Below are positions 1 to 55,210 of a stretch of 64,000 bases of DNA, in pieces; within the stretch, counting starts at the first letter, position 1, and every line of letters starts with the position of its first letter. The notes beneath the pieces were generated by a model, which saw only the letters and a list, made by a program, of their open reading frames with translations, was not told the DNA's origin and searched no databases. Position numbers and translations under genes: made by a program. The DNA is from Flectonema sp. DT1601 (Eukaryota). Location of the stretch: contig OZ025787.1 in assembly GCA_964019425.1 (NCBI GenBank), forward strand, positions 1,116,001 to 1,180,000, read 5' to 3'.

Positions 1-935
1 ATGAGGCGCACTTGTCCTTCTGGATCAGATGCGCCTAAGCCTGGCTCGTTCTGAGACAGCAGCGTAAGACACCTGGGTCATGACTGGCAGATTTTCCAAC
101 TTCACAGCCCTTAAGCCATGACTGGGTACGTCTAGGGAAGAGATCGGTCTGCTCCTCATCGCGGCATGGACAGGGGCTTTCACCACAATGTGACAATACA
201 GGAACCACCGAAGAAGCAGCCGAAGATGCTTTTAGCCGCCGCTCCCGATGTCGCACTGGGCATATGTAAGACCTGTTTCTTTGCATTCTGTTGCTGCTCG
301 ATATAGCTGCTGCTTTGTTGCAGTTTTTTTTATTTTATAATTAAGTTGCTTCTTTTTTGCGTCTCTGGTCATGACCCTAAACTGACTAAGCTTCTCATTT
401 TCTTGACAGAACAGGAACCCCTCTCCCGATACGCATAAAACATGTCAGCGATGAGTTTCTGAGTCGGTCCGCTCCTCATCGCGACATGCGCGTGTAGAGG
501 AAGGACGGGGGCTGTCACCACAATGTGACAAAGCAGACACCGCCACTGAAGAAGCAGCCACCACCGATCCCTATGTGTGACTTGTGCGGCCAAAACAGCC
601 ACAATAAACACAACAAAACAGGTTTGCAACTTTGCCTCTTTGTTTCTTTCTCGCCGCTCGCCGTCAAGCACACATTGGGATAGATTAGATGGATATGCTG
701 GATGATTGGTGTCTGCCACAATGTGGAATGGAGGGCCAAAGCCAAAAGCTTGCCCAGATCCACCTGAACCCACCACCCATGTTGCCCTATGATGGAAACT
801 GTGAATCACAGTATGAGAAGAGTTACTTTAAAAGTGCCGATCCGTTTTCTATCGGTCTTAACCTTGGTGTCCAACTAAACTAAAGGGCAAAGCGGCCTCG
901 TAATGAGAAGCCGGCCTCGTAAGTGATATTCTATG

Positions 936-2031
936 TTACGAAGCCAACCGCTTAGCTTTCTCCCTCCTACCCTGTCTCTGTTCCGAGGTGACGCCTACAT
1001 CACCTATGTATTTTTCAGGGACATGCTTTTTGACATCCCTTTCCCGATGGAATTCCTCTTCCAATTGTGCCCGGGGGATTTCATTGACCTGTGCTTCGGG
1101 GATCGGATGTTTTATAGCATCCACCAGCAGTATGTTATCCAACCTTATTTTGGTGTCGTCGTTCAGTATCGCGTTCACCTTCGCTATATGTTTTACTGTG
1201 TATATCTGCCTGGACCAAATCTGCTTGGTTCCCTTTGTGAAGATGTTGCGAGTCAGACGCTTACGTACTTTGTCACCAACAGAAATGTTTGTCTTAATAT
1301 CCACATTATACTTCTTTAAATTATCGGACAGGATTCTTTCAAATAATGGATCTTCGGGAGTGCTAACATATACTTGATTGGGAGTGTAATCGTGTAATGT
1401 TGAATGGGGCGTGCCGTTGTAGTCGGTGATAACCTTTTGTAAGTACTGCGACCATTTAGTCGTTCTGAATAAGGTCAAGTGCCTTTCCATCCTCTCGCGG
1501 AATGTTCTCGAGAATCGATCCACAACACCTAAAGCATTATGATCTCCCACCTCATTTGTCTCATGATTAATATTAAAACGATTGAGTAGCTCTTGTACAT
1601 ACTTATTTAAGAACTCCGTCCCATTGTCGCTGATGATTGTTCCGATTGAGGGGCTCGTTGCTTCGATGATGCTTCGCAGGGCTTCTTCTACGACTGGCCC
1701 TGTTTTGTTTTTTAGTGCCCTCGCTGATGCCCTTCTGGAGAAGATATCAATCGCTATCAGTATGAATGTGTTTCCGTTGTTAGTTCTCTTGTAGGGTTGG
1801 TAATCTAATAAATCCATCTGAACCCTCTCATTGATCCCGAATGCAACAATATGGCCGGTAATCTTTTTGGTTTTAACCTTGTAGAGTTGCGACACTTCAT
1901 TGAGTTTCAAGAAGTCCACCACGTCGCGTCGTTCCACATGTGGGTTATTCGCATGAGCAACCTTGTAGATTTTTTCGACAGACTCGATAACTCAATTCCT
2001 CATAAACAGATTTTATTGTAGCAGCAGTCAT
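936..2031 (-). pseudogene. Polinton/adintovirus/Mavirus-type retroviral-like (rve) integrase with an N-terminal frameshift
   Basis: QMDLLD...LIAIDIFSR...IISDNGTEF...VVDRFSRT...YNGTPHS, then GDKVR..IFTKG..WSRQIY, as in Polinton-type integrases. The ATG at 2031 (MTAATIKSVYEELSY) joins the 936-1937 frame through a frameshift near 1985-1990. Confidence 0.85.
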
Positions 2032-2086
2032 AATATATATTTAATCACGGGATTTATTTTGGACGTGATAATATACAATAAGAACA

Positions 2087-2400
2087 ATGAATACCTTTTA
2101 TACTACATTAAGCGATAACCAACTTCAAAGGGTCAAGTCTTCCCGGAACCCGCTGATACGAATTCAGGTTCCAAAGGAGGGAGGTCCTCATATGATCCCT
2201 ATCAGCGACGAGGATGCCGAGAAGATTAAGAGGAGCCGGGGAAAAACCGTACGACTCAATTTAGATGTTGATGCTGCAAGGGGGTCTGGGTTCCTCAGTG
2301 ATGTTCTATCCGGTATCAAAACCGTTGCAAAGAAGGTATTAAAGCCGCCCATGTCCTCGTCGATACCGCTGCAGATGCTTTGCTAGGTGGAGGTATTATC
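2087..2400 (+). pseudogene. Polinton/adintovirus-like small virion protein, possibly membrane-active, frameshifted
   Basis: ARGSG-FLSDVLSGIKTVAKKVLK amphipathic helix after a GxG site. A shifted frame from ~2344 continues AAHVLVDTAADALLGGG. Lies between the integrase and the protease. Confidence 0.5.
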
Positions 2401-2405
2401 GTGCC

Positions 2406-3146
2406 TTGTACCTCATTAAAAAAAACAATGATGTAGACTACGAACCTCTATATAGTTATCAAATAGAAGACTACCTGAAAGAAATTGGTAAACCTTTGGC
2501 GGGGGTTTTCATGCCCGACGAAATACCACACGATCTCGACCCTGGTTACTATCTTATAAACTTGGATCACTCTGATTCTGTTGGAACTCACTGGACATGT
2601 CTATTCATAGCTCCCTCTGGACCTGCGTTGTACTTCGATTCATTTGGCATGCCTCCACCCGAAGAAGTAAGAGTTCGACCTCTCATCTATTCCACGACCC
2701 AGCTGCAGGACTTGAAGAGCATAATGTGTGGGTACTTCGTCATCGACTTTGTGAAGAATGTACATGATGAAAACTCCTACCACGATTTCTTACATAAAAA
2801 GTATCACGGTGATGCTGACGACGATGACAGAATAATCAAGGGTGGTGGTATCCATGAGTGGTTGACACGGGTTTTCCCCAACACAGAACTGCATCTACCA
2901 GTTCTGACTAAGAATGGGGTTGAGAAGGCTTCGTTTGCAGGTCCTGGTACTAAGTTAGAGGATAGGATCAAGAACTTGGATGACAACATTACTAGGGAAG
3001 TAAACAACGAAGACATCCCGGAATCGGATATTATAACGAAGCCCAAGAGTCGATTTGATAGGTTGGCGATGCATCACGATCTCTCATATTCCGCTGCTGA
3101 GAGGGACTGTGATGATGATCCCAATTGTGTCAAGAAGAAGAAGTTT
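2406..3146 (+). CDS. Adenain/Ulp1-clan (CE) cysteine protease fused in frame to a parvovirus-VP1u-type phospholipase A2 domain, 3'-truncated
   Basis: Protease motifs GTHWTCL, YFDSFG.PP, QDLKSIMCG; linker IIKGGG; PLA2 motifs FAGPGT and DRLAMHHDLSY. Confidence 0.8.
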
Positions 3147-3624
3147 CGAAGCAGCAAGCGGCCAGCATGGCGTACCTCTTGGATGTCTTTCTGTTGAGAA
3201 TTGCCAAGATTATTCCTTGGGTTATTCATACGTTCACACTTTTGATAATGACGAAAGTATAACAATAAATGTTACTTCTGCCTGTCCAGACTTCCTGATT
3301 TACCGAACACCTACCGAACAGGATCTCCGGGTAGAATGCCAGAAACTGTTGGATTCGAAACTCCAAATAATCGTTGTCGAAGTGCAGTCTGGTGGAAAAG
3401 ATGAAAAGTTTGGATATGTACAGTTGCGTCTTGCGCTCCATGGATTAGCTCAGCGGAAGAAGGACAAGCGTAAGGTCTTTGGGTTGTACATCAGGAAGAT
3501 AAATGGGGAACTTGGCGCCGCAACCCTCATGAAGTTAGAAGATAATGTTGTTCACATCGATGGCGAATTTGCTCTCAAGGCTATCCCGAACCTCTGTGTG
3601 GAAGTGCTTAAACGCTGTGATTGA
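3147..3624 (+). pseudogene. 5'-truncated PD-(D/E)xK-like nuclease-fold ORF fragment
   Basis: PDFLIY...IIVVEVQ motif spacing; starts abruptly where the PLA2 frame breaks. Confidence 0.35.
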
Positions 3625-3982
3625 AAACCTTCTTTTCATATCATTGTGCCTGTATGGGTACCAATACAAGAAAGTGTGTGTCACTCAGTCTCACTTCTTG
3701 CTGGATAGATTTCACCTATAAAAATAGATAGTCAACCTTCTTTAAGAATGCTCCCAAAAAAGAATCTCCCCGCAACCAATTGTGCACCAGGTTTTTCGAT
3801 TAGTACTGTGTTTGGCAGTGCGTTGGTAGTTTTGCCTTGTAGAACCATCTTTGATTATTGTTGATGGTTTGTTAGCTTTTCTGCTAGCATCTTTGCTCCA
3901 AATACAGGAACCGATATAATATGTTGAAGCTTATCGAGTGGATTTAAGTTGGTTGGATCAAGCGCGTTCTTTATATTATCCC

Positions 3983-4311
3983 ATATCCCCACAAAATATT
4001 ATACCTTTTCATTTTCTCTTTCCTTTTCTGGTCCTTTTTTTTCTTTTTTTTTTTCTTCTTTTTCATATAACGTTTATTTAATTTTTTACTTTTTTTTTTT
4101 CATGTTTGATTATTTCCTCTTCATATTATACTTTTTTTTTCTGCCTCTCTCTTAATTCTGTTCGTTTCTTTGAAACGAAAATTCCTTGGTCAGCATCTGT
4201 CATTGTCGCCCTTTGGGCCTGTTAAAAAAATTAAATAAAAAGAAAGTTTACATCGGGAATAGGACAGGAGCAAAAAGCTCCCAGTCCGTTACTTCCCACC
4301 TTTTCGAAATC
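3983..4311 (+). mobile_element. Short diverged copy of the family E terminus, including the terminal stem-loop
   Basis: Reverse complement of 29488-29865 with some divergence; stem-loop variant aggac-a-ggagc-aaaaa-gctcc-ca-gtcc at 4261-4287. Confidence 0.85.
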
Positions 4312-4339: not shown

Positions 4340-6425
4340 CTTAAAACTTTGTGGATCAGGCAGTTTTTTTAAACTTTATGTGTGGAGCTGGCGGTTTTTT
4401 AAAACTTTGTGGAGCTGGCAGTTTTTTGAAACTTTGTGTGTGGAGCTGGTGGTTTTTTAAAACTTTGTGTGTGGAGCTCAGTTTTTTGGAACTTTGTGTG
4501 TGGAACTGGCGGTTTTCTCAAACAATTTGTGCGGAGCTGGCAGTTTTTTGAAACCTTGTGTGTGGAGCTTGCAGTTTTTTGAAACTTTGTGTGTGCAACT
4601 GGCAGTTTTTCAAAACTTTGTGTGTGGAACTGGCGGTTTTCTCAAACAATTTGTGTGGAGCTGGCGGTTTTTTAAAACTTTGTGTGTGGAGCTGGCAGTT
4701 TTTTGAAACTTTGTGTGTGGAGCTGGCAGTTTTTTCAAACAATTTGTGTGGAGCTGGCGGTTTTTTGAAACTTTGTGTGTGGAACTGGCGGTTTTCTCAA
4801 ACAATTTGTGTGGAGCTGGCGGTTTTTTAAAACTTTGTGTGTGGAGCTGGCAGTTTTTTGAAACTTTGTGTGTGGAGCTGGCAGTTTTTTCAAACAATTT
4901 GTGTGGAGCTGGCGGTTTTTTGAAACTTTGTGTAACTGGCAGTTTTTTGAAACTTTGTGTGTGGAACTGGCGGTTTTCTCAAACAATTTGTGTGGAGCTG
5001 GCGGTTTTTTAAAACTTTGTGTGTGGAGCTGGCAGTTTTTTGAAACTTTGTGTGTGGAGCTGGCAGTTTTTTCAAACAATTTGTGTGGAGCTGGCGGTTT
5101 TTTGAAACTTTGTGTGTGGAGCTGGCGGTTTTTTAAAACTTTGTGTGTGGAGCTGGCAGTTTTTTGAAACTTTGTGTGTGGAGCTGGCAGTTTTTTCAAA
5201 CAATTTGTGTGGAGCTGGCGGTTTTTTGAAACTTTGTGTGTGGAGCAAGAGCTTTAAAATTTTGTGGCGGTTTATTAAAACTTTGTGGAACTGGCAGTTT
5301 TTCGTAATTTTGTGTGTGGAGCTGGCGGTTTTCTGAAACTTTGTGGCGGTTTTTTGAAACTTTGTGTGTGGAGCTGGCAGTTTTTTGAAACTTTGTGTGT
5401 GCAACTGGCAGTTTTCTCAAACAATTTGTGTGGAACTGGCGGTTTTCTCAAACAATTTGTGTGGAGCTGGCGGTTTTTTGAAACTTTATGTGTGGAGCTT
5501 GCAGTTTTTTGAAACTTTGTGTGTGCAACTGGCGGTTTTCTCAAACAATTTGTGTGGAGCTGGTGGTTTTTTGGAACTTTGTGTGTGGAGCTCAGTTTTT
5601 TGGAACTTTGTGTGTGGAACTGGCGGTTTTCTCAAACAATTTGTGTGGAGCTGGTGGTTTTTTGGAACTTTGTGTGTGGAGCTCAGTTTTTTGGAACTTT
5701 GTGTGTGGAACTGGCGGTTTTCTCAAACAATTTGTGTGGAACTGGCGGTTTTCTCAAACAATTTGTGTGGAGCTGGCGGTTTTTTGAAACTTTATGTGTG
5801 GAGCTTGCAGTTTTTTGAAACTTTGTGTGTGCAACTGGCGGTTTTCTCAAACAATTTGTGTGGAGCTGGTGGTTTTTTGGAACTTTGTGTGTGGAGCTCA
5901 GTTTTTTGGAACTTTGTGTGTGGAACTGGCGGTTTTCTCAAACAATTTGTGTGGAGCTGGCAGTTTTTTGAAACTTTGTGTGTGGAACTGGCGGTTTTCT
6001 CAAACAACTTGTGTGGAGCTGGCGGTTTTTGGAGCTGGCAGTTTTTTGAAACTTTTTGTGTGCAACTGGCAGTTTTTTAAAACTTTGTGGAGCAGGCAGT
6101 TTTCAAACAATTTGTGCGGAGCTGGCAGTTTTTTGAAACTTTGTGTGTGGAACTGACGGTTTTCTCAAACAATTTGTGTGGAGCTCAGTTTTTTGGAACT
6201 TTGTGTGTGGAACTGGCGGTTTTCTCAAACAATTTGTGTGGAGCTTGCAGTTTTTTGAAACTTTGTGTGTGCAACTGGCGGTTTTCTCAAACAATTTGTG
6301 TGGAGCTGGTGGTTTTTTGGAACTTTGTGTGTGGAGCTCAGTTTTTTGGAACTTTGTGTGTGGAACTGGCGGTTTTCTCAAACAATTTGTGTGGAGCTGG
6401 CGGTTTTTTGAAACTTTGTGGAGCA
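4340..6425. repeat. ~29-31-bp minisatellite array of about 2.1 kb
   Basis: Units such as tgtgtgtggagctggcagttttttgaaactt and tgtgtggagctggcggttttctcaaacaatt repeated in tandem. Confidence 0.97.
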
Positions 6426-6426
6426 G

Positions 6427-8107
6427 AGTTGAATTTCCAGGTGAGATTTGGACTGTTAGCTTTTGGCTAAGGCCCTCCCTGAAGAGCAAGAACAAAAAAA
6501 CTACTCACACCTGAAGAAAACATACACAAAGAACACACTGTAAGCTGTGTGTGTATTTTGTGTTTGTCACAACAGGAGAGAAAAGAAAGAATGTCAAGGT
6601 TGGTCACCTTGCCTATCAACGCACAACATTGGTGGTCTCTACTAGACCCTGAGTGATCCCACTGGATCTCTCATCGTTCATAGTACCCTGTGTGAAGTTA
6701 TAAAATCAAAGGTAAACTATGAACTACAAATGACTTAGCCTGTTATTATAATGCCACAGGCAGGCCCTGCATTCAGCAACTATCCAGCAGTGCTTGGAAG
6801 TCCTGATCTTCTTCTAAAAAAAAGAAAGAAAAACAAAACTGTAGCTGGGATCACTCAGGATCAACAGACTACCAATGCTACCTGTTGTACTTGCTCACTA
6901 TGGGGGGTGATGCCAAACACCCAGAAGTACTAAACTGCTTTCCTTCTTGCTGCCCAGGAGTTTCTGACCAGAACTAATAGAAAATAAAAAGTAGATGGGA
7001 AACAATAAAAAGTAAAATGGATATAACTGAAGTTAAACAAGACAAATGAAGTAACAGACCAGAACAGAAAGAGAATTGTAATAGAAGATTACAAATAAAA
7101 AAATGCAAGTATCAACACATGATCAGGATACACCAGCAGCTAACAAACAACATAAAATTGAAGATCAGTTGCCAGAGTATTTCAACCATGGTAGAATACT
7201 CGCCCCTCTGGCAGGGATTATCCCAGACTTGTCCTTTAATTTAGTTGGACACCATGGCTTACAACCCTTCCAGAGGGAAGCACCATTATGACTTCTATTT
7301 TTTTTCTTCAAGAAAATCATAAGGTGGTAACAAAGAAAAAATGCTAAGAGGAACCCCCTATTAACACCTAAGACATCTAAACTGCAGCCCAGCCTATGCC
7401 CAATGCACTAACAGGTCATTCCCTCACACTCAGATCAAAAAAATCAAAGTTCAGAGTGCATCTTAGCGTGAATGAGAGAATTTCCTCCCGCTTATTTTGA
7501 ACAAAAGGGATAGGAGAAGGGATAGAAAACGAACATAAAAATAAAATTCTAAGTGAGAAACACTTAGCAGAAACACTTAGCAGCTTTTAAGGAGCTGAAA
7601 AGCAAAAAAAAAATCTAAGTGAGAAACACTTAGCAGAAACAATTTGTAGCTAATTAAGCTGAAAATAAAAAAAATAAAAAATTTCTAAGTGAGAAATACT
7701 TAGCAACTTTTAGAACAAATATTTCAGTAAATAACCTGTAATGATTAAACCATTACAAGTTTGATGCCAAAACTGACAAGGACTGAGTTGAATTTCCAGG
7801 TGAGATTTGGACTGTTAGCTTTTGGCTAAGGCCCTCCCTGAAGAGCAAGAACAAAAAAACTACCCACACCTGAAGAAAACATACACAAAGAACACACTGT
7901 AAGCTGTGTGTGTATTTTGTGTTTGTCACAACAGGAGAGAAAAGAAAGAATGTCAAGGTTGGTCACCTTGCCTATCAACGCACAACATTGGTGGTCTCTA
8001 CTAGACCCTGAGTGATCCCACTGGATCTCTCATCGTTCATAGTACCCTGTGTGAAGTTATAAAATCAAAGGTAAACTATAAACTACAAATGACTTAGCCT
8101 GTTATTA
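6427..8107 (-). mobile_element. Family R1: 1359-bp non-coding unit plus a partial second unit, head-to-tail
   Basis: gaatttccaggtgagatttggactg at 6431 and 7790. Near-identical copies at 15278, 23773, 25157, 45929 and 47287, and inverted at ~50950. Confidence 0.9.
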
Positions 8108-8578
8108 TTTAGAATTTTATTGTTATGTTCATTTTCTATCCCCTCTTCTATCCCTTTTGTTCAAAAAAAGCGATGAGATATTTCTCTCATTCATGCTAAG
8201 ATGCACTCTGAACTTTGATTTTTTGATCTGAGTGTGAGGGAATGACCTGTTAGTGCATTGGGCATAAGCTGTGCTGCAGTTTAGATGTCTTAGGTGTTAA
8301 TAGGGGGTTCCTCTTAGCATTTTTTCTTTGTTACCACCTTATGATTTTCTTGAAGAAAAAAAATAGAAGTCATAATGGTGCTTCCCTCTGGAAGGGTTGT
8401 AAGCCATGGTGTCCAACTAAATTAAAGGACAAGTCTGGGATAATCCCTGCCAGAGGGGCGAGTATTCTACCATGGTTGAAATACTCTGGCAACTGATCTT
8501 CAATTTTATGTTGTTTGTTAGCTGCTGGTGTATCTTGATCATGTGTTGATACTTGCATTTTTTTTTTTATTTGTAATC
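8108..8578 (+). repeat. Inverted partial R1 segment forming a fold-back with 7085-7552
   Basis: Reverse complement of the R1 interior; the QVSTHDQDTP frame appears on both strands. Confidence 0.9.
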
Positions 8579-8619
8579 TTTTGTTTTTGTTTATTTGTTT
8601 TTTCTTTAAAAAATAAATA

Positions 8620-11061
8620 AAAAGATAAAAAAAATAAAAAAAAAAAGGAATAAACAATGTTATCATTGTTTTTTTATCGATCGACTATGTCGATTACTTT
8701 CTATTTTCCGTCCTGGTCAGGACGCTAAACTGACTGTTTTTTCTTTAAAAATAAATAAAAAGTTAAAAAAAAAAAAAAAAAAAAGGAATAAACAATGTTA
8801 TCATTGTTTTTTTTTATCGATCGACTATGTCGACTAATTTCTATTTTCCGTCCTGGTCAGGACGCTAAACTGATTGTTTTTTCTTTAACCCATTAAGGAC
8901 GGGGGGTCCACTACAGTGGTTATTTTGAAATTTTATTTTCGCTAAGGGGAAAACCCGGCTAACGCTACCCAGGGGGGGTGTAATCGAGGCCGTTTCGCGA
9001 CGAATCTTGGGTGGGATGGCGTGGTTCGCTGTGTTTTCATTCATGAAATTCAAAACTAATAATCGAAATTTTACCACCTAACAAGAAGTTTCGTGTGCCT
9101 GTTGAAATTGATACAAGTTCGGCGTCCTATGAAAGTCTGATGATGATGGATTCTGTATCGGAGTCGTCATCTGACAGCAACACAGCAAAGGTATCAAAGT
9201 GGGGGGGGCAAAACCAAGAGAATCCCCAGGGAAAAACGGAAAGGACCTACCCAGAGTGTGAGCGACTTTAATGAAATGAGCGAATTGAAGGCATCCAACT
9301 CATTTTCACTGATCATGTGCTTAAAATGATATTTCGACACACTCTTGCCTACCCGATTGACAAAGAGACGTCCATGAAGTCACTAGAAGTTGGTGAACTG
9401 AAATGCTTTCTCCGTAATTTCCACACTGCTAACAAACACATTCCTGCTTCTTATGTTCATAGTCTTGTTAAACCCCATAATAATAAAGGGCATTGGGTGA
9501 CGTTTGACAATTTCAATTCGTCATACGCATTTCTTGTTTTGATGTTAGCGAAAGGGTTCCACTGTGTTGGAACAGCCTGACGGAACAGAAAGGGAGTTCT
9601 GTTGATGTTCCAAAACCGAAGGCTACCCCTGGACCGGGACGACTAAGCAAATCGGAAGTGAAAGAAAGACCGAAGAATCTTTCTGCTTCTTACCTTCAGT
9701 CAAGCACGGCATCCACCATATAAAGTGGAGAGACTCAAAGGATGTGCATCTTTTCAGTACTCTTCCCTTACGTGAGCACTGTGTCGATGTATATCGCTGG
9801 ATTAGGAAGAGAAATAAAAAAGAAAAAGTGCCGATCAAACTACCGTGCAAGTAGACAGGTACACCAAAACGATGGGAGGTGTTAACCTGATGGATAGCGT
9901 GAAGGGAAGGGCGAACAGAAACCTTCAAACTAAACGATGGCATCTAAAGGTTTTCGACTACTTGCTGAAAGTTTCAATGTTCAACACGTTTACCCTTCAA
10001 AAGAAATGCGGTAAGGATACTGGTACCTACATACGGTATGTAGAGGAGCTCGCTATGCAAGACGTCAGTGACGGGACGTCGAGAGACAAGACAACCAATA
10101 CTACATCTACTATTGACTCGGGTTCGCACTTTTCACACATGTTCAGCACCACTGAGCACTATCCATCAATATTTGGCGCTGCTAAACAATGTAAGTATCA
10201 CAATACTCGAGTGAGGACTACTTATGGATGCCAGGGGTGTAAGGTTTTTATGTGTCCTGCACCCTGTTTTGGTAAATACCACTTAAATCTTACAAAGGGG
10301 AGAACATTTGCGTCCCATACCACCACCTCTGTGTCGGGAGGTGCTATCCGGGAAGAATGTACGAAGGGGAAGACCCCTGCACTCACAACAACATCAAAAT
10401 TGAAGAGGCGCAGGGAGTCATAAGAACTGAGCTTATTTTTGTCTTTGGTGGTGTTTTCATTTGTTCTGTTCACCCTTTAGGTGGTGAATGTGTGTGTATT
10501 TTTAACGGGCAGGCAATGGCGGTTCACTTTGTCACATCACCTTTCCGAGCCCCCCTACCCCTTTTCCCCGTTAGATCTTTTTTCAAAAAAAGTCAAAAAA
10601 CCGGGTTTTACCCCCGTCCGTAATGGGTTAATTAATAAAAAGATAAAAAAAAAAAAAAAAAGGAATAAACAATGTTATCATTGTTTTTTTTATCGATCGA
10701 CTATGTCGATTACTTTCTATTTTCCGTCCTGGTCAGGACGCTAAACTGACTGTTTTTTCTTTAAAAAATAAATAAAAAGTTAAAAAAAAAAAAAAAAAAA
10801 GGAATAAACAATGTTATCATTGTTTTTTTTATCGATCGACTATGTCGATTACTTTCTATTTTCCGACCTGGTCAAGATGCTAAACTGATTGTTTTTTTTT
10901 TTAAAATAAATAAAAAAAATATAAAAAAAAAAAATAAAAAAAAAAGAATAAACAATGTTATCATTGTTTCTTATCGATCGACTTTGTCGACTAATTTCTA
11001 TTTTCCGTCCTGGTCAGGACGCTAAACTGATTGTTTTTTCTTTAAAAATAAATAAAAGATA

Positions 11062-11092
<31 letters not shown>

Positions 11093-11504
11093 ATAAACAA
11101 TGTTATCATTGTTTTTTTTTTATCGATCGACTTTGTCGACTAATTTCTATTTTCCGTCCTGGTCAAGACGCTAAACTGATTATTTTTTTCTTTAAAAAAT
11201 AAATAAAAAGAATAAAAAAAAAAAAAAGAAAAATGAATAAACAATGTTATCATTGTTTCTTATCGATCGACTTTGTCGACTAATTTCTATTTTCCGTCCT
11301 GGTCAAGACGCTAAACTGATTATTTTTTTCTTTAAAAAATAAATAAAAAGAATAAAAAAAAAAAAATAAAAAATAAAAAAAAAAATGAATAAACAATGTT
11401 ATCATTGTTTCTTATCGATCGACTTTGTCGACTAATTTCTATTTTCCGTCCTGGTCAAGACGCTAAACTGATTGTTTTTTCTTTTAAAAAATAAATAAAA
11501 GATA

Positions 11505-11535
<31 letters not shown>

Positions 11536-11934
11536 AGAAATAAACAATGTTATCATTGTTTTTTTTATCGATCGACTTTGTCGATTACTTTCTATTTTCC
11601 GTCCTGGTCAGGACGCTAAACTGACTGTTTTTTCTTTAAAAAATAAATAAAAAGTTAAAAAAAAAAAAAAAAAGGAATAAACAATGTTATCATTGTTTTT
11701 TTTATCGATCGACTATGTCGATTACTTTCTATTTTCCGTCCTGGTCAAGATGCTAAACTGATTGTTTTTTTTTTTAAAATAAATAAAAAGAATATAAAAA
11801 AAAAAAATAAAAAAAAAAGAATAAACAATGTTATCATTGTTTCTTATCGATCGACTTTGTCGACTAATTTCTATTTTCCGTCCTGGTCAGGACGCTAAAC
11901 TGATTGTTTTTTCTTTAAAAATAAATAAAAGATA

Positions 11935-11965
<31 letters not shown>

Positions 11966-12376: not shown

Positions 12377-12407
<31 letters not shown>

Positions 12408-12820: not shown

Positions 12821-12851
<31 letters not shown>

Positions 12852-17386: not shown

Positions 17387-17421
<35 letters not shown>

Positions 17422-17815: not shown

Positions 17816-17851
<36 letters not shown>

Positions 17852-31408: not shown

Positions 31409-31445
<37 letters not shown>

Positions 31446-40238: not shown

Positions 40239-40276
<38 letters not shown>

Positions 40277-40529: not shown

Positions 40530-40562
<33 letters not shown>

Positions 40563-40954: not shown

Positions 40955-40985
<31 letters not shown>

Positions 40986-41759: not shown

Positions 41760-41796
<37 letters not shown>

Positions 41797-44700: not shown

Positions 44701-45713
44701 GGGTTCGTTTTTTCAGAGTTGAACGCTCAGACTTTCTCGGCGGAGTTTCATTTTCCTCATGTTCTTCTGTGTCTGGCGGACTCAAACCTTCTGCCCATGA
44801 AGCTAATTGGAACTTCAGGGCCGCAATTTGAGACCGTGCCAAGGCGAGTTGAGCATTTAAATCGCTCGCCAGTCCCGTTAACATCATGGATTGCTCAAGC
44901 TGCTCTGCGTGAGTTGTACACCGTTGGTGATTCAGCTCCGAGAGGCGAAGTTGGGCATCCAGAAGTTGTTCTGAGAGCTCTGCCGCTTTCTCGTTTGTTT
45001 CGAGAGAGTCATCTACTGCTCGACAGTAGTTCTCGAGTAAGTCAATCCTACCCTCGGACCATTGTCTCGCAATAGGTGTATTCTCTTTAACGGAGATAAC
45101 GTGACTCTCTTGTCGTAAAATCTTGGTCGGCGTGCGGTCGAGAGCTTCACTCTGCGGCATTGTCGGAGGAATTGAGGCTAGAGGACAAAGAGGGGTGATA
45201 TAATTAAGGGTAGGGATAAGGGGTTTAATAAGAGGAGTAAAAAGACTACTCGTAGTTGTAAAGAGCGAGAGGTAGTTCTTTGCTATCTTCATCATAGCAA
45301 CAGATTCATACAGAACGGGGGTTCGGGGGGAAACTTGTTGACTAAAGTGGGTCATACGGGGACGCGCGGCACGCAAACTCTCGACCTCCTGTTGAGTATA
45401 GAAAAGTCTTATTTTACTTTCTCTTTCCTCATTACATTTGGTCTCCAATTCGTTCGACAGAAGAACAAACCTTTGATGGTAATTAAAGAGCGCCATTTCC
45501 GATAGGTCTGCTCTCTGAGTCAGATTTGCGAGCTCACGTTTCCTGTAATCTTCCACTAAGTCATATTGTCGAACTAGTGCAGAAAGAGAAGTCTTCGATT
45601 CATCGCGTTCTGCTGTTAACCGTTGAATTACTCCTTCCAGAAGTTCATATTCTTTTCTATCTTTTTCAATAATTAAAACAGGGGGCGCAGGAGGAAGTGA
45701 GGATGGATCCTGG
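39845..45713 (-). repeat. Second, truncated tandem copy of the ~10.35-kb unit of E plus HERO
   Basis: Offset of 10351-10357 bp from copy 1; ORF 44627-45713 matches the C-terminal part of the 1708-aa protein. Confidence 0.93.
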
Positions 45714-45917
45714 AAGTCACCCAACTGAGTCCCTGTGTCGCCCTGTACTTGAGACGAGAACAACCTTCCTCCGGCGCACCGAAATCAAGATGGAAACCAG
45801 CACCCTTTGACAGGAAACCAACCTTCTACTACGGAGTTGCGGAAGGCAGATCCCCAGGAGTGTACACCACGTGGGAGGAAACGAAGAGGGAGGTGTCCAA
45901 CTATAGGGGCGCCGTCC
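45713..45917 (+). pseudogene. Displaced CRE ORF piece: end of the USP domain plus an RNase H1 N-terminal hybrid-binding (Cauli_VI) domain
   Basis: Translates EVTQLSPCVALYLRREQPSSGAPKSRWKPAPFDRKPTFYYGVAEGRSPGVYTTWEETKREVSNYRGAVQ. Absent from the ORF track. Confidence 0.8.
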
Positions 45918-47579
45918 AGGACTGAGTTGAATTTCCAGGTGAGATTTGGACTGTTAGCTTTTGGCTAAGGCCCTCCCTGAAGAGCAAGAACAAAAAAACT
46001 ACTCACACCTGAAGAAAACATACACAAAGAACACACTGTAAGCTGTGTGTGTATTTTGTGTTTGTCACAACAGGAGAGAAAAGAAAGAATGTCAAGGTTG
46101 GTCACCTTGCCTATCAACGCACAACATTGGTGGTCTCTACTAGACCCTGAGTGATCCCACTGGATCTCTCATCGTTCATAGTACCCTGTGTGAAGTTATA
46201 AAATCAAAGGTAAACTATGAACTACAAATGACTTAGCCTGTTATTATAATGCCACAGGCAGGCCCTGCATTCAGCAACTATCCAGCAGTGCTTGGATGTC
46301 CTGATCTTCTTCTAAAAAAAAGAAAGAAAAACAAAACTGTAGCTGGGATCACTCAGGATCAACAGACTACCAATGCTACCTGTTGTACTTGCTCACTATG
46401 GGGGGTGATGCCAAACACCCAGAAGTACTAAACTACTTTCCTTCTTGCTGCCCAGGAGTTTCTGACCAGAACTAATAGAAAATAAAAAGTAGATGGGAAA
46501 CAATAAAAAGTAAAATGGATATAACTGAAGTTAAACAAGACAAATGAAGTAACAGACCAGAACAGAAAGAGAATTGTAATAGAAGATTACAAAAAAGAAA
46601 ATGCAAGTATCAACACATAATCAAGATACACCAGCAGCTAACAAACAACATAAAATTGAAGATCAGTTGCCAGAGTATTTCAACCATGGTAGAATACTCG
46701 CCCCTCTGGCAGGGATTATCCCAGACTTGTCCTTTAATCTAGTTGGACACCATGGCTTACAACCCTTCCAGAGGGAAGCACCATTATGACTTCTATTTTT
46801 TTTCTTCAAGAAAATCATAAGGTGGGAACAAAGAAAAATGCTAAGAGGAACCCCTTATTAACACCTAAGACATCTAAACTGCAGCCCAGCTTATGCCCAA
46901 TGCACTAACAGGTCATTCCCTCACACTCAGATCAAAAAATCAAAGTTCAGAGTGCATCTTAGCGTGAATGAGAGAATTTCCTCCCGCTTATTTTGAACAA
47001 AAGGGATAGGAGAAGGGATAGAAAACGAACATAACAATAAGATTCTAAGTGAGAAACACTTAGCAGAAACACTTAGCAGCTTTTAAGGAGCTGAAAAGCA
47101 AAAAAAAAATCTAAGTGAGAAACACTTAGTAGAAACAATTTGTAGCTAATTAAGCTGAAAATAAAAAAATAAAAAAAATTTCTAAGTGAGAAATACTTAG
47201 CAACTTTTAGAACAAATATTTCAGTAAATAACCTGTAATGATTAAACCATTACAAGTTTGATGCCAAAACTGACAAGGACTGAGTTGAATTTCCAGGTGA
47301 GATTTGGACTGTTAGCTTTTGGCTAAGGCCCTCCCTGAAGAGCAAGAACAAAAAAACTACTCACACCTGAAGAAAACATACACAAAGAACACACTGTAAG
47401 CTGTGTGTGTATTTTGTGTTTGTCACAACAGGAGAGAAAAGAAAGAATGTCAAGGTTGGTCACCTTGCCTATCAACGCACAACATTGGTGGTCTCTACTA
47501 GACCCTGAGTGATCCCACTGGATCTCTCATCGTTCATAGTACCCTGTGTGAAGTTATAAAATCAAAGGTAAACTATGAA
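45918..47579 (-). mobile_element. Family R1: 1358-bp unit plus a partial unit that resumes at 54653-54816
   Basis: Termini at 45929 and 47287. R1 sequence aactatgaa|ctacaaatg is split between 47579 and 54653. Confidence 0.9.
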
Positions 47580-48320
47580 TTTCTATCGATCAACTATGTC
47601 GATTAATTTCTATTTTCCGTCCTGATCGAGACGCTAAACTGATTGTTTCCTTTTTTTAAATAATAAATACTGCAACTGGAAATATTACTGCGCTGAATAA
47701 TTACTGCGGGGAAATATTTCTGCGCGGAAAAATTAGTGCGGTTTTTTTGAGAAAAAATTAGTGCGGTTTTTTCCACTTGGTGGTAGAAAAAAATTTGGTT
47801 GCTTTTTTGCTGTGTAAGGCACCAGCAGAAAAATGCAGCTGGAAAAAAGTCAATTCTGAGTAGAAATATTAGTGCGGTGGAAATATTACTGCGTGGAAAA
47901 ATTAGTGCGGTTTTTTGCAGATTTGGAAATTAGTGCGGTTTTTTCTGCGCAGTAATATTTCCAGTTGCAGTAAGAAAAAAAAAAAAAAAAAAAAAAAGAG
48001 CATCTCCCTGCTATCCCTCATATCCCCACAATAATATTATACCTTTTCATTTTCTCTTTCCTTTTCTGGTCTTTTTTTTTTCTTTTTTTTCCTTTTTCAT
48101 ACAACGTTTTTTATTTATATATATATATTTTTTTTTTTTTTTTTTTTCATGTTTGATTATTTCCTCTTCATTTTTTTTTCTTTTCTTTTCTTTCTTTTTT
48201 TTTTTTTTTCCTCTGCCTCTCTCTTAATTCTGTTCGTTTCTTTGAAACGAAAATTCATTTGAATATTATTCCTTGGTCAGCAACCATCATTGTCGCCCTT
48301 TGGGCCTGTTAAAAAAAAAT
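47580..48320 (+). repeat. Inverted E fragment forming a fold-back with 48400-48823
   Basis: Reverse complement of 48400-48823 once the MITE at 47670-47970 is removed. Confidence 0.88.
47670..47970. mobile_element. 301-bp MITE with TA TSD (Tc1/mariner type)
   Basis: Perfect 24-bp TIR CTGCAACTGGAAATATTACTGCGC flanked by TA; internal aaattagtgcgg repeats. Confidence 0.93.
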
Positions 48321-48847
48321 GAATTTCGATAAAGTGGGAAGTAACGGACTGGGAGCTTTTGGCTCCTGCCCTATTCCCGATGTAAACTTTCTTTTTATTT
48401 TTTATTTTTTTTAACAGGCCCAAAGGGCGACAATGATGGTTGCTGACCAAGGAATAATATTCAAATGAATTTTCGTTTCAAAGAAACGAACAGAATTGAG
48501 AGAGAGGCAGAGAAAAAAAAAAAAAAAAAAAAAAGAAAGAATAGAAAAAGAAAAATATGAAGAGGAAATAATCAAACATGAAAAAAAAAAAAAAAAAAAA
48601 TATAAATAAAAAACGTTGTATGAAAAAGGAAAAAAAGAAAAAAAAAAGACCAGAAAAGGAAAGAGAAAATGAAAAGGTATAATATTATTGTGGGGATATG
48701 AGGATAGCAGGGAGATGCTCTTTTTTTTTTTTTTTTTTATTATTTAAAAAAAGGAAACAATCAGTTTAGCGTCTCGATCAGGACGGAAAATAGAAATTAA
48801 TCGACATAGTCGATCGATAGAAAAAAAAAAAATGATAACATTGTTTA

Positions 48848-48882
<35 letters not shown>

Positions 48883-49698
48883 CTTTTAATTATTTTAAAG
48901 AAAAAACAATCAGTTTAGCGTCTTGACCAGGACGGAAAATAGAAAGTAATCGACATAGTCGATCGATAAAAAAAAAACAATGATAACATTGTTTATTCCT
49001 TTTTTTTTTTTTTTTTTTTTTAACCTTTTAATTATTTTTTAAAGAAAAAACAATCAGTTTAGCATCTTGACCAGGACGGAAAATAGAAAGTGATCGACAT
49101 AGTCGATCGATAAAAAAACAATGATAACATTGTTTATTCTTTTTTTTTTTTTTTTTTTAAATTCTTTTTATTTATTTTAAAGAAAAAAAAACGGAAAATA
49201 AAAATTAGTCGACAAAGTCGAACGATAAAAAAAAAACAATGATAACATTGATTAATCTTTTTTTTTTTTTTTTTTTTTTTTTTAACCTTTTAATTATTTT
49301 TTAAAGAAAAAACAATCAGTTTAGCGTCTTGACCAGGACGGAAAATAGAAAGTGATCGACATAGTCGATCGATAAAAAAACAATGATAACATTGTTTATT
49401 CTTTTTGTTTTTGTTTTTTTTTTTTTATATTCTTTTTTATTAATTTTGAAAAAAAAAACAATCAGTTTAGCGTCTTGACCAGGACGGAAAATAGAAAGTA
49501 ATCGACATAGTCGATCGATGAAAAAAAAACAATGATAACATTGTTTATTCTTTTTTTTTTTTTTTTTTTTTAAATTCTTTTTATTTATTTTTTAAAAAGA
49601 AAAAAAAAACGGAAAATAGAAATTAGTCAACAAAGTCGAATAATAAAAAAAAAAACAATGATAACATTGTTTATTCTTTTTTTTTTATTTTTTTTTTA

Positions 49699-51116
49699 CT
49701 GTAAAGGGAAATATTCTCGCGGGGAAATATTCTTGCGGGGAAATTTTCTCGCGGGGAAATATTCTCGCGGATTTGGGGATTTTTTTTCAAACTCGCGGGT
49801 TTTTCCCCACAAGAATATTTCCCTGCCACAGAGGATTTTTGCGAAAGTGAGTCAGTTGATCAAGAATTTAACAAATCTTTGTGCTTTCATCGAATGTCAG
49901 GTGGAACAAATCATTATTTACGAGCAAACACAATAAAAAACTACAACAAAAATAATTTTTGCTGAAACTTTAAATTAAAGGACAAGTCTGGGATAATCCC
50001 TGCCAGAGGGGCGAGTATTCTACCATGGTTGAAATACTCTGGCAACTGATCTTCAATTTTATGTTGTTTGTTAGCTGCTGGTGTATCTCGATCATGTGTT
50101 GATACTTGCATTTTTTTTTATTTGTAATCTTTTACTACAATAACTCTTGCAATTATCTTTTCTTTTTTATTCTCTATCTGTTCTGGTCTGTTTCTTCATT
50201 TTTTTACATTAATAATTACATTTTGTTCAAAAAGAAAAAAAAAGAAAAAGATTTCATATTAGAAACTAGGAAACTAGGTTAACACTTAGTTAAAATTAAG
50301 ACCGGTTAGTCAGTTTAAGGTCTTGTCTAGGACCAACATTCTTGTTTAACTTCAGTTATATTCATTTTACTTTTTATTGTTTCCCATCTGTTTTTATTTT
50401 CTATTAGTTCTGGTCAGAAACCCCTGGGCAGCAAGAAGGAAAGCAGTTTAGTACTTCTGGGTGTTTGGCATCACCCCCCATAGTGAGCAAGTACAACAGG
50501 TAGCATTGGTAGTCTGTTGATCCTGAGTGATCCCAGCTACAGTTTTGTTTTTCTTTCTTTTTTTTAGAAGAAGATCAGGACATTCAAGCACTGCTGGATA
50601 GTTGCTGAATGCAGGGCCTGCCTGTGGCATTATAATAACAGGCTAAGTCATTTGTAGTTCATAGTTTACCTTTGATTTTATAACTTCACATAGGGTACTA
50701 TGAACGATGAGAGATCCAGTGGGATCACTCAGGGTCTAGTAGAGACCACCAATGTTGTGCGTTGATAGGCAAGGTGACCAACCTTGACATTCTTTCTTTT
50801 CTCTCCTGTTGTGACAAACACAAAATACACACACAGCTTACAGTGTGTTCTTTGTGTATGTTTTCTTCAGGTGTGAGTAGTTTTTTTGTTCTTGCTCTTC
50901 AGGGAGGGCCTTAGCCAAAAGCTAACAGTCCAAATCTCACCTGGAAATTCAACCCTTCATAGCACACATATTTTCTTCACAAAAAGGAACAAAAAAAATG
51001 GCTGGAAAAAAGATATGCTTGCAGGGAAATATTCCCGCGGGGAAATATTCTCGCGGATTTAGAAAAAATAATAAAAACTCGCGGGTTTTTCCCCACAAGA
51101 ATATTTCCCTTTACAG
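49699..51116. mobile_element. MITE with TA TSD, containing an inverted R1 fragment (49971-50953)
   Basis: TA-CTGTAAAGGGAAATATTCT...AGAATATTTCCCTTTACAG-TA; same family as 51983-52429. Confidence 0.92.
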
Positions 51117-51379
51117 TATATTCTTTTTATTAATTTTGAAAAAAAAAACAATCAGTTTAGCGTCTTGACCAGGACGGAAAATAGAAAGTGATCGACATAG
51201 TCGATCGATAAAAAAAAACAATGATAACATTGTTTATTCTTTTTTTTTTATTTTTTTTTGTATTCTTTTTTATTAATTTTGAAAAAAAACAATCAGTTTA
51301 ACGTCTTGACCAGGACGGAAAATAGAAAGTGATCGACATAGTCGATCGAAAAAAAAAAACAATGATAACATTGTTTATT

Positions 51380-51413
<34 letters not shown>

Positions 51414-51526
51414 CTTTTTATTATTTTTAAAGAAAAAACAATCAGTTTAGCGTCTTGACCAGGACGAAAAATAGAAAGTGATCGACATAGTCGATCGATA
51501 AAAAAACAATGATAACATTGTTTATT

Positions 51527-51560
<34 letters not shown>

Positions 51561-51982
51561 CTTCTTATTATTTTTTAAAGAAAAAACAATCAGTTTAGCG
51601 TCTTGACCAGGACGGAAAATAGAAAGTAATCGACATAGTCGATCGATAAAATAAAAACAATGATAACATTGTTTATTCCTTTTTTCTTTTTTTTTTTATT
51701 CTTTTTATTAATTTTAAAGAAAAAACAATCAGTTTAGCGTCCTGACCAGGACGAAAAATAGAAAGTGATCGACATAGTCGATCGATAAAAAAACAATGAT
51801 AACATTGTTTATTCTTTTTTTTTTGTTTTTTTTTTTTATTCTTTTTATTTATTTTTTAAAGAAAAAACAATCAGTTTAGCGTCTTGACCAGGACGGAAAA
51901 TAGAAATTAGTCGACAAAGTCAATCGATAACAAAACAATGATAACATTGTTTATTCTTTTTTTTTTTTTTTTTTTTTTTTTA

Positions 51983-52429
51983 CTGTAAAGGGAAATATTC
52001 TCGCGGGGAAATAATCTTGCGGGGAAATATTCCCGCGGGGAAATATTCTCGCGGATTTGGAGATTTTTTTTCAAACTCGCGGGTTTTTCCCCACAAGAAT
52101 ATTTCCCTGCTACAGAGGATTTTTGCGAAAGCCAGCCAGTTGACCAAGAATCAAAGAGATCTTTGTGCTTCCATCGAGTGTCAGGTAGAACAAAGCATTA
52201 TTTACCAAGGAAACACAATAAGAAACTACCATACTGCACAATAAAAATAATTTTTGCTGAAATTTCCCTTCGTAGCACACATATTTTCTTCACAAAAAAG
52301 AACAAAAAAAAATGCTAGAAAAAAAGTATGCTTGCAGGGAAATATTTCCGCGGGGAAATATTCTCGCGGATTCAGAAAAAATAATAAAAACTCGCGGGTT
52401 TTTCCCCACAAGAATATTTCCCTTTACAG
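51983..52429. mobile_element. 447-bp MITE with TA TSD (Tc1/mariner type)
   Basis: TIR CTGTAAAGGGAAATATTCT; subterminal gcggggaaatatt repeats. Confidence 0.94.
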
Positions 52430-54816
52430 TATTCTTTTTATTTATTTTTTAAAGAAAAAACAATCAGTTTAGCGTCCTGACCAGGGCGGAAAATAGAAAG
52501 TAATCGACATAGTCGATCGATAAAAAAAAACAATGATAACATTGTTTAATCTTTTTTTTTTTTTTTTTTTTTTTATTCTTTTTATTTATTTAGAAAAAAC
52601 AATCAGTTTAGCGTCTTGACCGGGACGGAAAATAGAAATTAGTCGACAAAGTCGATCGATAAAAAAACAATGATAACATTGTTTATTCTTTTTTTTTTTT
52701 TTTTTTTTTTTAAATTCTTTTTATTTATTTTTTAAGAAAAAAACGGAAAATAGAAATTAGTCGACAAAGTCGAACGATAAAAAAACAATGATAACATTGT
52801 TTATTCTTTTTTTATTTTTTTTTTTTATAATCTTTTTAATTAATTTTGGAAAAAAAAAAAAAAACAATCAGTTTAGCGTCTTGACCAGGACGGAAAATAG
52901 AAAGCAATCGACATAGTCGATCGATAAAAAAACAATGATAACATTGTTTATTCTTTTTTTTTTTTTTTTTTTTTAAATTCTTTTTATTTATTTTTTAAGA
53001 GAAAAAAATGGAAAATAGAAATTAGTCGACAAAGTCGAACGATAAAAAAACAATGATAACATTGTTTATTCTTTTTTTTATTTTTTTTTTTTTATAATCT
53101 TTTTTTATTAATTTTGAAAAAAAAAAAACAATCAGTTTAGCGTCCTGACCAGGACGGAAAATAGAAATTAGTCGACAAAATCGATCGATAAAAAAACAAT
53201 GATAACATTGTTTATTCTTTTTTTTTTTTTTTTTTTTAAATTCTTTTTATTTATTTTTTAAGAGAAAAAAACGGAAAATAGAATTTAGTCGACAAAGTCG
53301 AACGATAAAAAAACAATGATAACATTGTTTAATCTTTTTTTTATTTTTTTTTTTTTATATTCTTTTTTATTAATTTTGAAAAAAAAAAAAAAAAAACAAT
53401 CAGTTTAGCGTCTTGACCAGGACGGAAAATAGAAAGTAATCGACATAGTCGATCGATAAAAAAACAATGATAACATTGTTTATTCTTTTTTTTTTTTTTT
53501 TTTTTTAAATTCTTTTTATTTATTTTTTAAGAAAAAAAACGGAAAATAGAAATTAGTCGACAAAGTCGAACGATAAAAAAACAATGATAACATTGTTTAT
53601 TCTTTTTTTTTATTTTTTTTTTTTTATATTCTTTTTTATTAATTTTGGGAAAAAAAAAAAAAAACAATCAGTTTAGCGTCTTGACCAGGACGGAAAATAG
53701 AAAGTAATCGACATAGTCGATCGATAAAAATACAATGATAACATTGTTTAATCTTTTATAATTTTTTATTTTTTTTTTGTTTTAAAAAAAAAAAAAAAAC
53801 AAGCGGAATTGATCATAATGGGTGGTAGGGGTTGTTATAACTTCGTTTGAAAATTCTTCTTTTTTGATTTCTTTTTTTTTTTTCTTTTTACAGGAGTTAA
53901 GATCACTGTCAGGAGACAACACATTAACAAGAGCAGCAAGCAGAGTTGACACTATCAATTCAAATTTGAAATACCGGGAATTAATTTACAAGGAGGTATC
54001 TCAAGTGACTTGGTATCTCTAGCGTGTCGGTATCTCTGGAGTGCTGGTATCTCGTATGTGCGTTGGTATCTCATGAGTGATGGTATCTCTTGTGCATTTA
54101 GAGAAACGAAAAAGAATGTCATGACCATGACGGAAGAATTGAGGAATTGAGTTAACATGTTCAATTTAACTTATTTAAACTTTTTTTTTTTTTTAACAGA
54201 CCGTAACTATTTGAAAATAAAATGTAGATGGGAAACAGTGAAAAGTAAAATGGATGATAAAATTAAATGAGAAATATGACATAACAGACCAGATAGAGAG
54301 TATTAAAAGGAAATTGAAAAGGAAAAGAGAAACTAGGTTAACACTTATTTAAAATTAAGACCGGTTAGTCAGTTTAAGGTCTTGACTAGGACCAACAAAA
54401 AAGAAAGAAAAAAAATTAACGATCAAGCTGAGCTGATCTTGTTTTTATTACAAATAGGGGAGCGGGAGGGATGGAAGGAATAGAGGAAAAAAAAAGAAAA
54501 GGTTGATCATTTGGATCTGATCGTCGAGAAGAAGAAATTATTTTAAAGGTTGATCGGAATAGCCGATCGTTGAAAATAAAAAGAAAGTTTACATCGGGAA
54601 TAGGGCAGGAGCCAAAAGCTCCCAGTCCGTTACTTCCCACTTTATCGAAATTCTACAAATGACTTAGCCTGTTATTATAATGCCACAGGCAGGCCCTGCA
54701 TTCAGCAACTATCCAGCAGTGCTTGGATGTCCTGATCTTCTTCTAAAAAAAAGAAAGAAAAACAAAACTGTAGCTGGGATCACTCAGGATCAACAGACTA
54801 CCAATGCTACCTGTTG

Positions 54817-55210
54817 AATTTCGATAAGTGGGAAGTAACGGACTGGGAGCTTTTGGCTCCTGCCCTATTCCCGACGTAAACTTTCTTTTTATTTTTTTTT
54901 TTTTTTTAACAGGCCCAAAGGGCGACAATGATGGTTGCTGACCAAGGAATAATATTCAAATGAATTTTCGTTTCAAAGAAACGAACAGAATTAAGAGAGA
55001 GGTAGAGAAAAAAAAAAAAAAAAAAAAAAAGAAAGAATAGAAAAAAAATATGAAGAGGAAATAATCAAACATGAAAAAAAAAAAAAAAATAAAATATAAA
55101 TAAAAAACGTTGTATGAAAAAGGAAAAAAAGAAAAAAAAAAGACCAGAAAAGGAAAGAGAAAATGAAAAGGTATAATATTATTGTGGGGATATGAGGATA
55201 GCAGGGAGAT

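Follow-up and report, generated by a model that had tools for sequence, protein, structure and literature searches.

A 64,000-nt stretch of the Flectonema sp. DT1601 assembly (GenBank GCA_964019425.1, contig OZ025787.1, positions 1,116,001–1,180,000), here called the window, contains a 27-nt hairpin at a fixed distance from the 3′ ends of three mobile families. These are E, a long interspersed nuclear element (LINE) that encodes a reverse transcriptase (RT) with a restriction-like endonuclease (RLE), and R1 and D, two families of non-coding units. We propose that the hairpin is the likely RNA handle by which an E-type enzyme binds its template and begins target-primed reverse transcription (TPRT) at a set distance from it; the template probably runs unbroken past the unit boundary, most likely as a circular unit RNA. 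We put the chance that this explanation is correct a little above even.

The hairpin has a nine-pair stem, and a pattern scan recovered 18 copies (8 in R1, 4 in D and 6 in E), the same count as in a sequence-only reading of this DNA. The pattern was post hoc, derived from the copies themselves, and had no match in 100 dinucleotide shuffles. The loop is CAAAA, as that reading had stated for every copy, except in the copy at 4261, where it is AAAAA. Over six distinct rows, all 54 of 54 stem cells hold standard pairs, with double-sided changes in three of the nine pairs and one-sided G-U variation in two; slid controls of the stem pair only 22–48%. The compensating changes described earlier are thus present in the stem, but their covariation is suggestive rather than strong, because the alignment holds three lineages only and the number of doubly changed pairs was reached in 52 of 500 shuffles (the covariation score in none of 500). 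A covariance model built without the copy at 732 gave 62–75 bits for the 18 copies and 18.1 bits (E 0.015) for the 732 copy, the next match scoring 10.9 bits; within the window, the model check suggested by the sequence-only reading separates these copies from background.

Eleven of the 18 hairpins stand at true ends and seven at head-to-tail junctions. Ten of the true ends lie 22–30 nt past the stem base, and the eleventh, at 4261, is diverged and its position was read by eye. These figures correct the earlier one of 15–30 nt from a fixed end, which had been given for all copies. In R1, D and E alike, the unit boundary is found 24–26 nt past the stem base and reads pyrimidine-C/AG, with the slash at the boundary. 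True ends range from −2 to +6 around it, while the R1 junctions are identical. Both spacers and stems are family-specific, the spacers differing in sequence between families. In E, the strand on which the G-U pairs are kept is that of the RT open reading frame (ORF), in keeping with the earlier remark that the wobbles pair on one strand. Spacing, strand and the upstream ORF bear out the cis signal that this reading had proposed: it is specific to one strand and keeps a constant distance to the 3′ terminus.

E is represented by the following features:

29488–39844, minus strand: full E unit of 10,357 nt, with its terminal hairpin at 29510–29536
34275–39551, minus strand: open frame of 1758 aa encoding the RT-RLE protein (RVT_1, E 3.6e-26)
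39845–45713, minus strand: 5′-truncated upstream copy of E, starting at ORF residue 1403 and 99.9% identical to the full unit
39867–39893, minus strand: hairpin at the tandem junction between the full unit and the truncated upstream copy
3977–4310, plus strand: older 5′-truncated E end beside a 31-bp satellite, with the hairpin at 4261–4287
47580–48319 and 54573–54652, plus strand: nested E copy, with its hairpin at 54602–54628
48320–54572, minus strand: E copy splitting the plus-strand copy, with its hairpin at 48346–48372
54815–56444, minus strand: E 3′ end in an R1 body, running into an assembly gap, with its hairpin at 54840–54866

The full unit consists of a 5′ leader of about 290 nt, the RT-RLE ORF, in which the first methionine is residue 273, and a 4.8-kb 3′ region with 212-bp and 142-bp tandem repeats. 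The hairpin marks the 3′ end of E, since it lies on the coding strand 4.7 kb past the stop codon; the autonomous ORF that the sequence-only reading sought upstream of the hairpin thus lies on this strand too and encodes an RT together with a restriction-like endonuclease. The predicted protein begins with two zinc-finger-like motifs, followed by the RT (FADD), a CCHC knuckle, an endonuclease with RHD and PD..E..K motifs, and a 500-aa tail. The CCHC and endonuclease motifs, at residues 972–1120, are conserved in the alignment. R2 proteins are the best solved relatives (E 2.7e-32), and identity to database relatives is at most 33%. By its sequence, E is assigned to the R2 superfamily as a LINE with RT and RLE. 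It has a single RT ORF, CCHC and PD-(D/E)xK motifs, a fixed 3′ end, variable 5′ truncation and little or no target duplication, as in RLE non-LTR (non-long-terminal-repeat) elements. The marks of the R2 clade are missing, in that the targets are other repeats and not 28S ribosomal DNA (rDNA), and the window holds no rRNA or ribozyme match. The wording of its motifs suggests that E may be HERO-like; no named HERO sequence was among the relatives returned by the searches.

The R1 and D units, and a single older relative, X, are distributed as follows:

23770–25904, minus strand: R1 partial tandem, made of a full unit (23770–25151) and a 753-nt upstream copy, inserted bluntly in a CRE/SLACS-like ORF; hairpins at 23792–23818 (end) and 25176–25202 (junction)
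6426–8108, minus strand: R1 partial tandem whose end lies in the 31-bp satellite, with hairpins at 6450–6476 and 7809–7835
45918–47579, minus strand: R1 partial tandem, whose upstream copy resumes at 54653–54816 past the nested E; hairpins at 45948–45974 and 47306–47332
49969–50956, plus strand: 5′-truncated R1 variant that includes an E-like segment, a blunt insertion in a small inverted-repeat element; hairpin at 50905–50931
21510–22936, plus strand: D partial tandem, variant 1, made of a 140-nt copy and a 1286-nt unit; hairpins at 21603–21629 (junction) and 22889–22915 (end)
27513–29487, minus strand: D partial tandem, variant 2, made of a 1340-nt unit and a copy of about 635 nt, joined directly to an E 3′ end; hairpins at 27539–27565 (end) and 28879–28905 (junction)
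1–935, plus strand: X, with a variant hairpin at about 732–760 and a second stem-loop at 65–130
22376–22462, plus strand: second shared domain in D, with a UAAGUC box, a long stem carrying a AACUUCACA loop, and a GAUCC hairpin

A further junction hairpin (15297–15323, also listed as 15312) lies within a 99.9% segmental duplicate of the 7809–7835 copy. Units of R1 measure 1359–1384 nt and those of D 1286–1340 nt. Neither family contains a credible ORF or an Rfam match; this includes RNA polymerase III heads of short interspersed nuclear elements (SINEs) of the tRNA, 5S or 7SL type, of which a diverged example could escape Rfam.

The bodies of these families, which the sequence-only reading had called almost unrelated, are distantly related. 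R1 and D have five common segments scoring at least 11, against 0.6 expected (0 of 200 shuffles), and three of them are collinear. R1 and X have four, one being the hairpin itself, against 0.29 expected (0 of 200 shuffles), and the one segment common to D and X is not significant (reached by 23% of shuffles). E shares 99 nt with R1 at 81% identity. X carries a box in common with E (350–389), which E has amplified into its 142-bp array, and another in common with R1 (862–890). With E, these putative partners have in common the 3′ hairpin and, in R1, the one 99-nt box; no 5′ homology was found. The second shared domain of D has counterparts in R1 (23995–24085, minus strand) and, partially, in X, and none in E. 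In single-sequence folds, its AACUUCACA loop sits on a long stem that differs in sequence between R1, D and X. Alignment folding of a sequence-only alignment failed to recover this stem, which hence rests on the single-sequence folds of the three families (partial in X).

Two further observations concern these units. In R1 (around 25236–25243, minus strand) and D (around 21564–21571, plus strand), a pyrimidine run is followed by TCAGGT some 50 nt ahead of the loop, which is not the case in E; the TCAGGT looks like a combined splice acceptor and donor and could close a unit circle by back-splicing. In addition, a mosaic unit on the plus strand joins an R1 5′ part to E-type 142-bp repeats (8109–8888, 10637–13234 and 15597–18240), with its 3′ end out of view.

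Whenever an insertion extends to the 5′ start of a unit, as six do, a truncated copy of its own family follows directly upstream. The sequence preceding a full unit is therefore a copy of its own 3′ end, contrary to the earlier suggestion that the machinery mobilises whatever lies upstream. The two halves of the D tandems differ at 0 of 141 and 1 of 635 positions, compared with 3 of 141 and 7 of 630 between events; the halves of one R1 tandem differ at 2 of 753, compared with 17 of 725 between events. The alleles of D variant 2 and a 28-nt insert of the R1 variant depart from the contig consensus of three other sequencing runs (X1, X3 and X4), so that minority variants occur twice in a row. 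Such sharing of minority alleles by both halves suggests that one RNA was read twice, by way of a circle or a self-jump. We infer that one template is read more than once and is continuous across the unit boundary. Several ends extend 1–6 nt into the start of the next unit, and some of these extensions are explicable by target microhomology.

Where the window also contains the empty site, the insertions are blunt, with 0–2 nt of microhomology and no target duplication. The 11 true ends lie in varied targets. Since 5′ truncation, blunt junctions and microhomology are alike in R1, D and E, the analogy with LINE/SINE 3′ tails drawn in the sequence-only reading fits. Its analogy with Helitrons does not, as there is no fixed target dinucleotide and no HUH or helicase family among the 14 window ORFs scanned. 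The interval 47580–54652 consists of an E in R1 with a second E nested in that E; a 5′ inversion was ruled out here by the exact empty-site match of the nested insertion. A D-D-E-E chain (27513–45713) occupies one site in the USP domain of the following element, with about 24 codons (about 70 nt) missing relative to a related protein:

18243–21509, 22937–23769, 25905–27512 and 45714–45917, plus strand: pieces of a CRE/SLACS-like RT-RLE-USP-Cauli_VI element, the target of D, R1 and E

The part of this element that is present has no match to the hairpin model, and a relative at 61% identity has the RT, USP and Cauli_VI domains in one frame. A 305-nt insertion without a hairpin (20419–20723) splits its ORF between RT and endonuclease.

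Parts of the stretch were found in 15 runs from 10 studies, none on record as RNA, and four of these runs (X1–X4) were compared. Contigs read through the D junction in three of the four and bridge the R1 junction in two; a new R1 end falls 2 nt past the boundary, and a new E end in X3 joins satellite-like sequence at the expected position. This independently confirms the fixed ends, as well as the junctions of R1 and of D. The E ORF occurs, at about 99%, in three of the four runs. An E end is also found on a contig that matches the D contig in length and depth, the two records presumably being one. In X3, E depth falls from 3′ to 5′ (26–33, 9 and 4.8), a weak indication drawn from contig depths, and two low-depth variant E ORF contigs are the sole hint of sister copies. 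Neither the CRE-like stretch, which is nearly uncovered in the four runs, nor X2, which has no E signal, was used as evidence. Near-identical sequence to 21510–29600 occurs in runs of 10 studies with 10 recorded organisms, all from 2023–2025, which suggests a widespread low-level passenger or contaminant.

Among RT relatives, 600 metagenome stretches were matched, of which 360 were confirmed and the best 80 kept. A head-to-tail direct repeat more than 3 kb apart was present in 23 of these best 80 loci and 20 of 61 families, figures for which there is no control clade, and in 14 of the 25 loci that have both flanks and contain a long ORF. On a quick tree, in which E is a long branch of unsure place and the rows are unnamed, the head-to-tail label is scattered (19 changes against a shuffled mean of 20.6). 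Of 12 head-to-tail loci inspected, seven, from six families, allow a true end as well as a junction to be read; the junction is pyrimidine/purine in each of the seven, and four ends run into telomeric-type repeats. None of these relatives has the hairpin in covariance-model scans (see below), so that the hairpin is lineage-specific; the layout is widespread. RT relatives of E were not found in the viral_contigs collection. A pattern scan of that collection gave four loci. Three of them lack a stem, and the fourth (L004), on the antisense strand within a helicase frame of viral type, was judged to be chance; the same scan of genome_contigs gave one locus, without a stem. Rfam searches at gathering score had no match in 20 of the 80 relative loci, and six loci yielded one chance match.

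Other features of the relatives were also recorded. Hammerhead-like cores, with GAAA before CUGANGA or CCGAUGA, occur in the 3′ regions of L014 (2893–2935), L016 (3616–3660), L074 (3972–4015) and L028; the first three have a 4-bp stem II, the L028 core was seen by eye, and none has Rfam support. The 3′ ends of L024, L038, L042, L063 and L075 show C-runs followed by (CCCTAA)n, suggesting that these head-to-tail arrays may target telomere repeats. A different conserved hairpin motif is common to related RT families in the 3′ regions of L021, L053, L059 and L072.

In the mechanism that we favour, an E-type protein would bind the hairpin RNA of E, R1 or D, nick loosely chosen DNA and start cDNA about 25 nt downstream of the hairpin, with R1 and D RNAs used in trans. 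Synthesis would usually stop early, leaving 5′-truncated copies. On reaching the 5′ start, it would continue into the 3′ end again and produce a truncated copy upstream of the full unit, and this copy would restore a promoter or processing context, as in Penelope. For the origin of the tandems within this explanation, we give a circular template about an even chance, and a self-jump and a long read-through RNA each about half of that. One enzyme may serve R1, D and E, or related RT families elsewhere in the genome could each serve one partner.

Several results weigh against this explanation. None of the runs is on record as RNA, and the evidence drawn from them is at the level of contigs; the E tandem junction is bridged in none of the four runs and is seen in this assembly alone. 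Closed R1 and D contigs in these runs could be read as free circles, but we set this aside and regard them as collapsed genomic tandems, because these runs also contain the E ORF and E appears to be joined into D on one contig. Alleles are informative in only one of the three R1 tandems, and the halves of a tandem could also be made alike by gene conversion. Whole-unit folding of D favours the antisense strand (z −7.6 versus −2.2), and E lacks the second domain. Rfam returned no match at E ≤ 1 in the window, a search of 21500–25200 gave five sub-threshold chance matches, and no hammerhead core was found in 1–56.4 kb, including R1, D and E (CUGANGA-first order only), the single weak match in the window falling in host DNA. 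A covariance model of the CAAAA hairpin run on 83 loci had no match below E 2.1 among the 80 RT relatives. Moreover, some neighbours in the relatives are only 66–93% identical, so that part of their layout is due to one insertion after another at a common target.

These points leave room for other explanations. Several related RT families might each have their own version of the hairpin, with unseen sister LINEs as the partners of R1 and D and the covariation reflecting descent. The family-specific spacers and stems and the same-family composition of all six tandems would fit this, as would the view of only 56 kb of the cluster and the finding that exchange of the zebrafish LINE-2 stem-loop swaps specificity (PMC11194090). 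The D-E chain at one site, the R1/E mosaic units and the common spacing and junction style of the three families speak against it, and we regard it as rather unlikely. It is also conceivable, if improbable, that the motif is read as DNA, as a target or promoter element, so that insertion behind an existing 3′ end builds the D-D-E-E chain step by step. This single rule would yield the whole chain, and related loci do show diverged neighbours and telomeric-repeat flanks; initiator-like pyrimidine/A junctions in all three window families, and pyrimidine/purine in all seven readable relatives, point the same way. Against this reading stand the minority alleles common to both tandem halves, the spread of the true ends from −2 to +6 next to identical R1 junctions, the retention of G-U pairs on a single strand, and the varied targets of the 11 ends.

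The driving RT could instead be another one, that of an unseen Penelope-like element or of the CRE/SLACS-like element, with the E ORF a passenger in an R1-like unit. Partial tandems and short 3′ tails are indeed hallmarks of Penelope (PMC2377424, PMC3846280), and the 3′ region of E, which has boxes in common with R1 and X, far exceeds in length that of related elements. Yet the E ORF is intact over 1758 aa, relatives of its RT are likewise arranged head to tail, the 14 ORFs scanned include none of the Penelope or GIY-YIG type, hammerhead core and target duplications are lacking, and the CRE-like copy is a broken target without a model match, making this quite improbable in our judgement. Rolling-circle elements, too, would be compatible with head-to-tail products and with insertions that are blunt and lack duplications. 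If the hairpin acted as a signal in single-stranded DNA for a rolling-circle DNA transposon of the Helitron/HUH type, this would nevertheless have to be reconciled with an autonomous carrier that encodes an RT, with microhomology and a spread of up to 8 nt at the ends, with targets that show no fixed dinucleotide, and with the lack of HUH and helicase families noted above; we consider it very improbable.

The proposed TPRT mechanism has close parallels in known systems. E has in common with HERO a single ORF, the CCHC, RHD and PD..E..K motifs and a loose choice of target, but its branch is long, its protein has a 500-aa tail and its 3′ region extends over 4.8 kb rich in repeats. HERO elements have mostly non-specific targets, some targeting microsatellites (PMC4640811). 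In R2Bm, a 3′-terminal stem-loop sets template positioning, tolerates compensatory stem changes and gives jump products (PMC11194090), and short internally deleted elements (SIDEs) of R2 retain a covarying 3′ structure (PMC3414825). Like R2 and its SIDEs, the present system combines RT and RLE with a compensatory 3′ structure common to the element and its non-coding partners, no early methionine and blunt or deleting junctions, and template jumps are documented for R2. Unlike R2 and its SIDEs, it is not rDNA-specific, has no detected ribozyme of the hepatitis delta virus type, and its partners measure 1.3–1.4 kb, with bodies that are not simple internal deletions of E; here, partial tandems are the rule for full-length insertions.

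In Penelope-like elements and HeT-A, a full copy is preceded by a variably truncated upstream copy with a short 3′ extension into the element start (PMC2377424, PMC3846280); in Penelope the upstream copy serves as a promoter, and the route to the tandem is stated to be open (PMC2377424). The partial tandem, or pseudo-LTR, layout and the possible supply of a promoter by an upstream 3′ end are thus alike, whereas here the endonuclease is RLE rather than GIY-YIG, no hammerhead core was found and the junctions read show no target duplications. The E RT is not of the Penelope class with GIY-YIG, and none was present among the 14 window ORFs scanned. Non-LTR retrozymes have type I hammerheads, are linked to Penelope-like elements and are thought to move via circular RNA (bioRxiv 10.64898/2026.07.22.740005). 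R1 and D resemble them in being non-coding, structured, tandem and non-autonomous, but are without a hammerhead core and appear tied to an RLE LINE.

The remainder of the window adds the following context. The mobile part comprises about 56 kb of nested elements and is followed by host genes of LRR, HAD and tubulin-ligase families, marking the DNA as eukaryotic; the nearest named relative of a host gene is a diplonemid protein at 41%, which indicates no more than a protist-like host. The 31-bp satellite has about 68 copies (4350–6420) and is faced by E and R1 ends from both sides; it resembles the first 40 nt of E, and X3 has another E end in similar sequence. Small inverted-repeat elements of two kinds, with TA-type ends and resembling miniature inverted-repeat transposable elements, lie within E copies (47668–47972, 49697–49968, 50957–51117 and 51980–52430). 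Two decayed piggyBac-like transposases with TTAA ends (8884–10627 and 13231–14960) are inserted in the 142-bp array. A fragment with an integrase (rve, E 1.9e-13) and a protease-like frame lies at 936–3624 and resembles a Polinton-type element.

Stringent recognition of a 3′ stem-loop common to a LINE and its partners is a known principle. In the literature searched, we found no description of this hairpin motif, or of non-coding partners, 3′ hairpins or partial tandems in HERO-like elements, although Repbase, subscription papers and supplements may hold some; an R2-type system that combines non-coding partners with Penelope-like tandems was likewise not found there. As a bolder and tentative extension, which we think doubtful, a clade of R2-type LINEs may copy circular RNA and regenerate pseudo-LTRs, and here drive 1.3-kb non-coding, hammerhead-free circular RNAs that have nothing but a ruler-like hairpin in common with the RNA of the enzyme itself and carry a second conserved domain. 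If this were true, that domain might act as a ribozyme or a ligation signal not described so far. In annotation pipelines, R1 and D would pass for satellites or unknown repeats. Proteins of the R2 type serve as tools for RNA-templated gene insertion, and the 27-nt hairpin, with its natural compensatory variants and fixed 24–26-nt spacer, may give a relative without site specificity a minimal template signal that is ready for use. The combination of a Penelope-type layout with an R2-type enzyme, three co-resident families and short ends would make the choice between circle and template jump directly testable.

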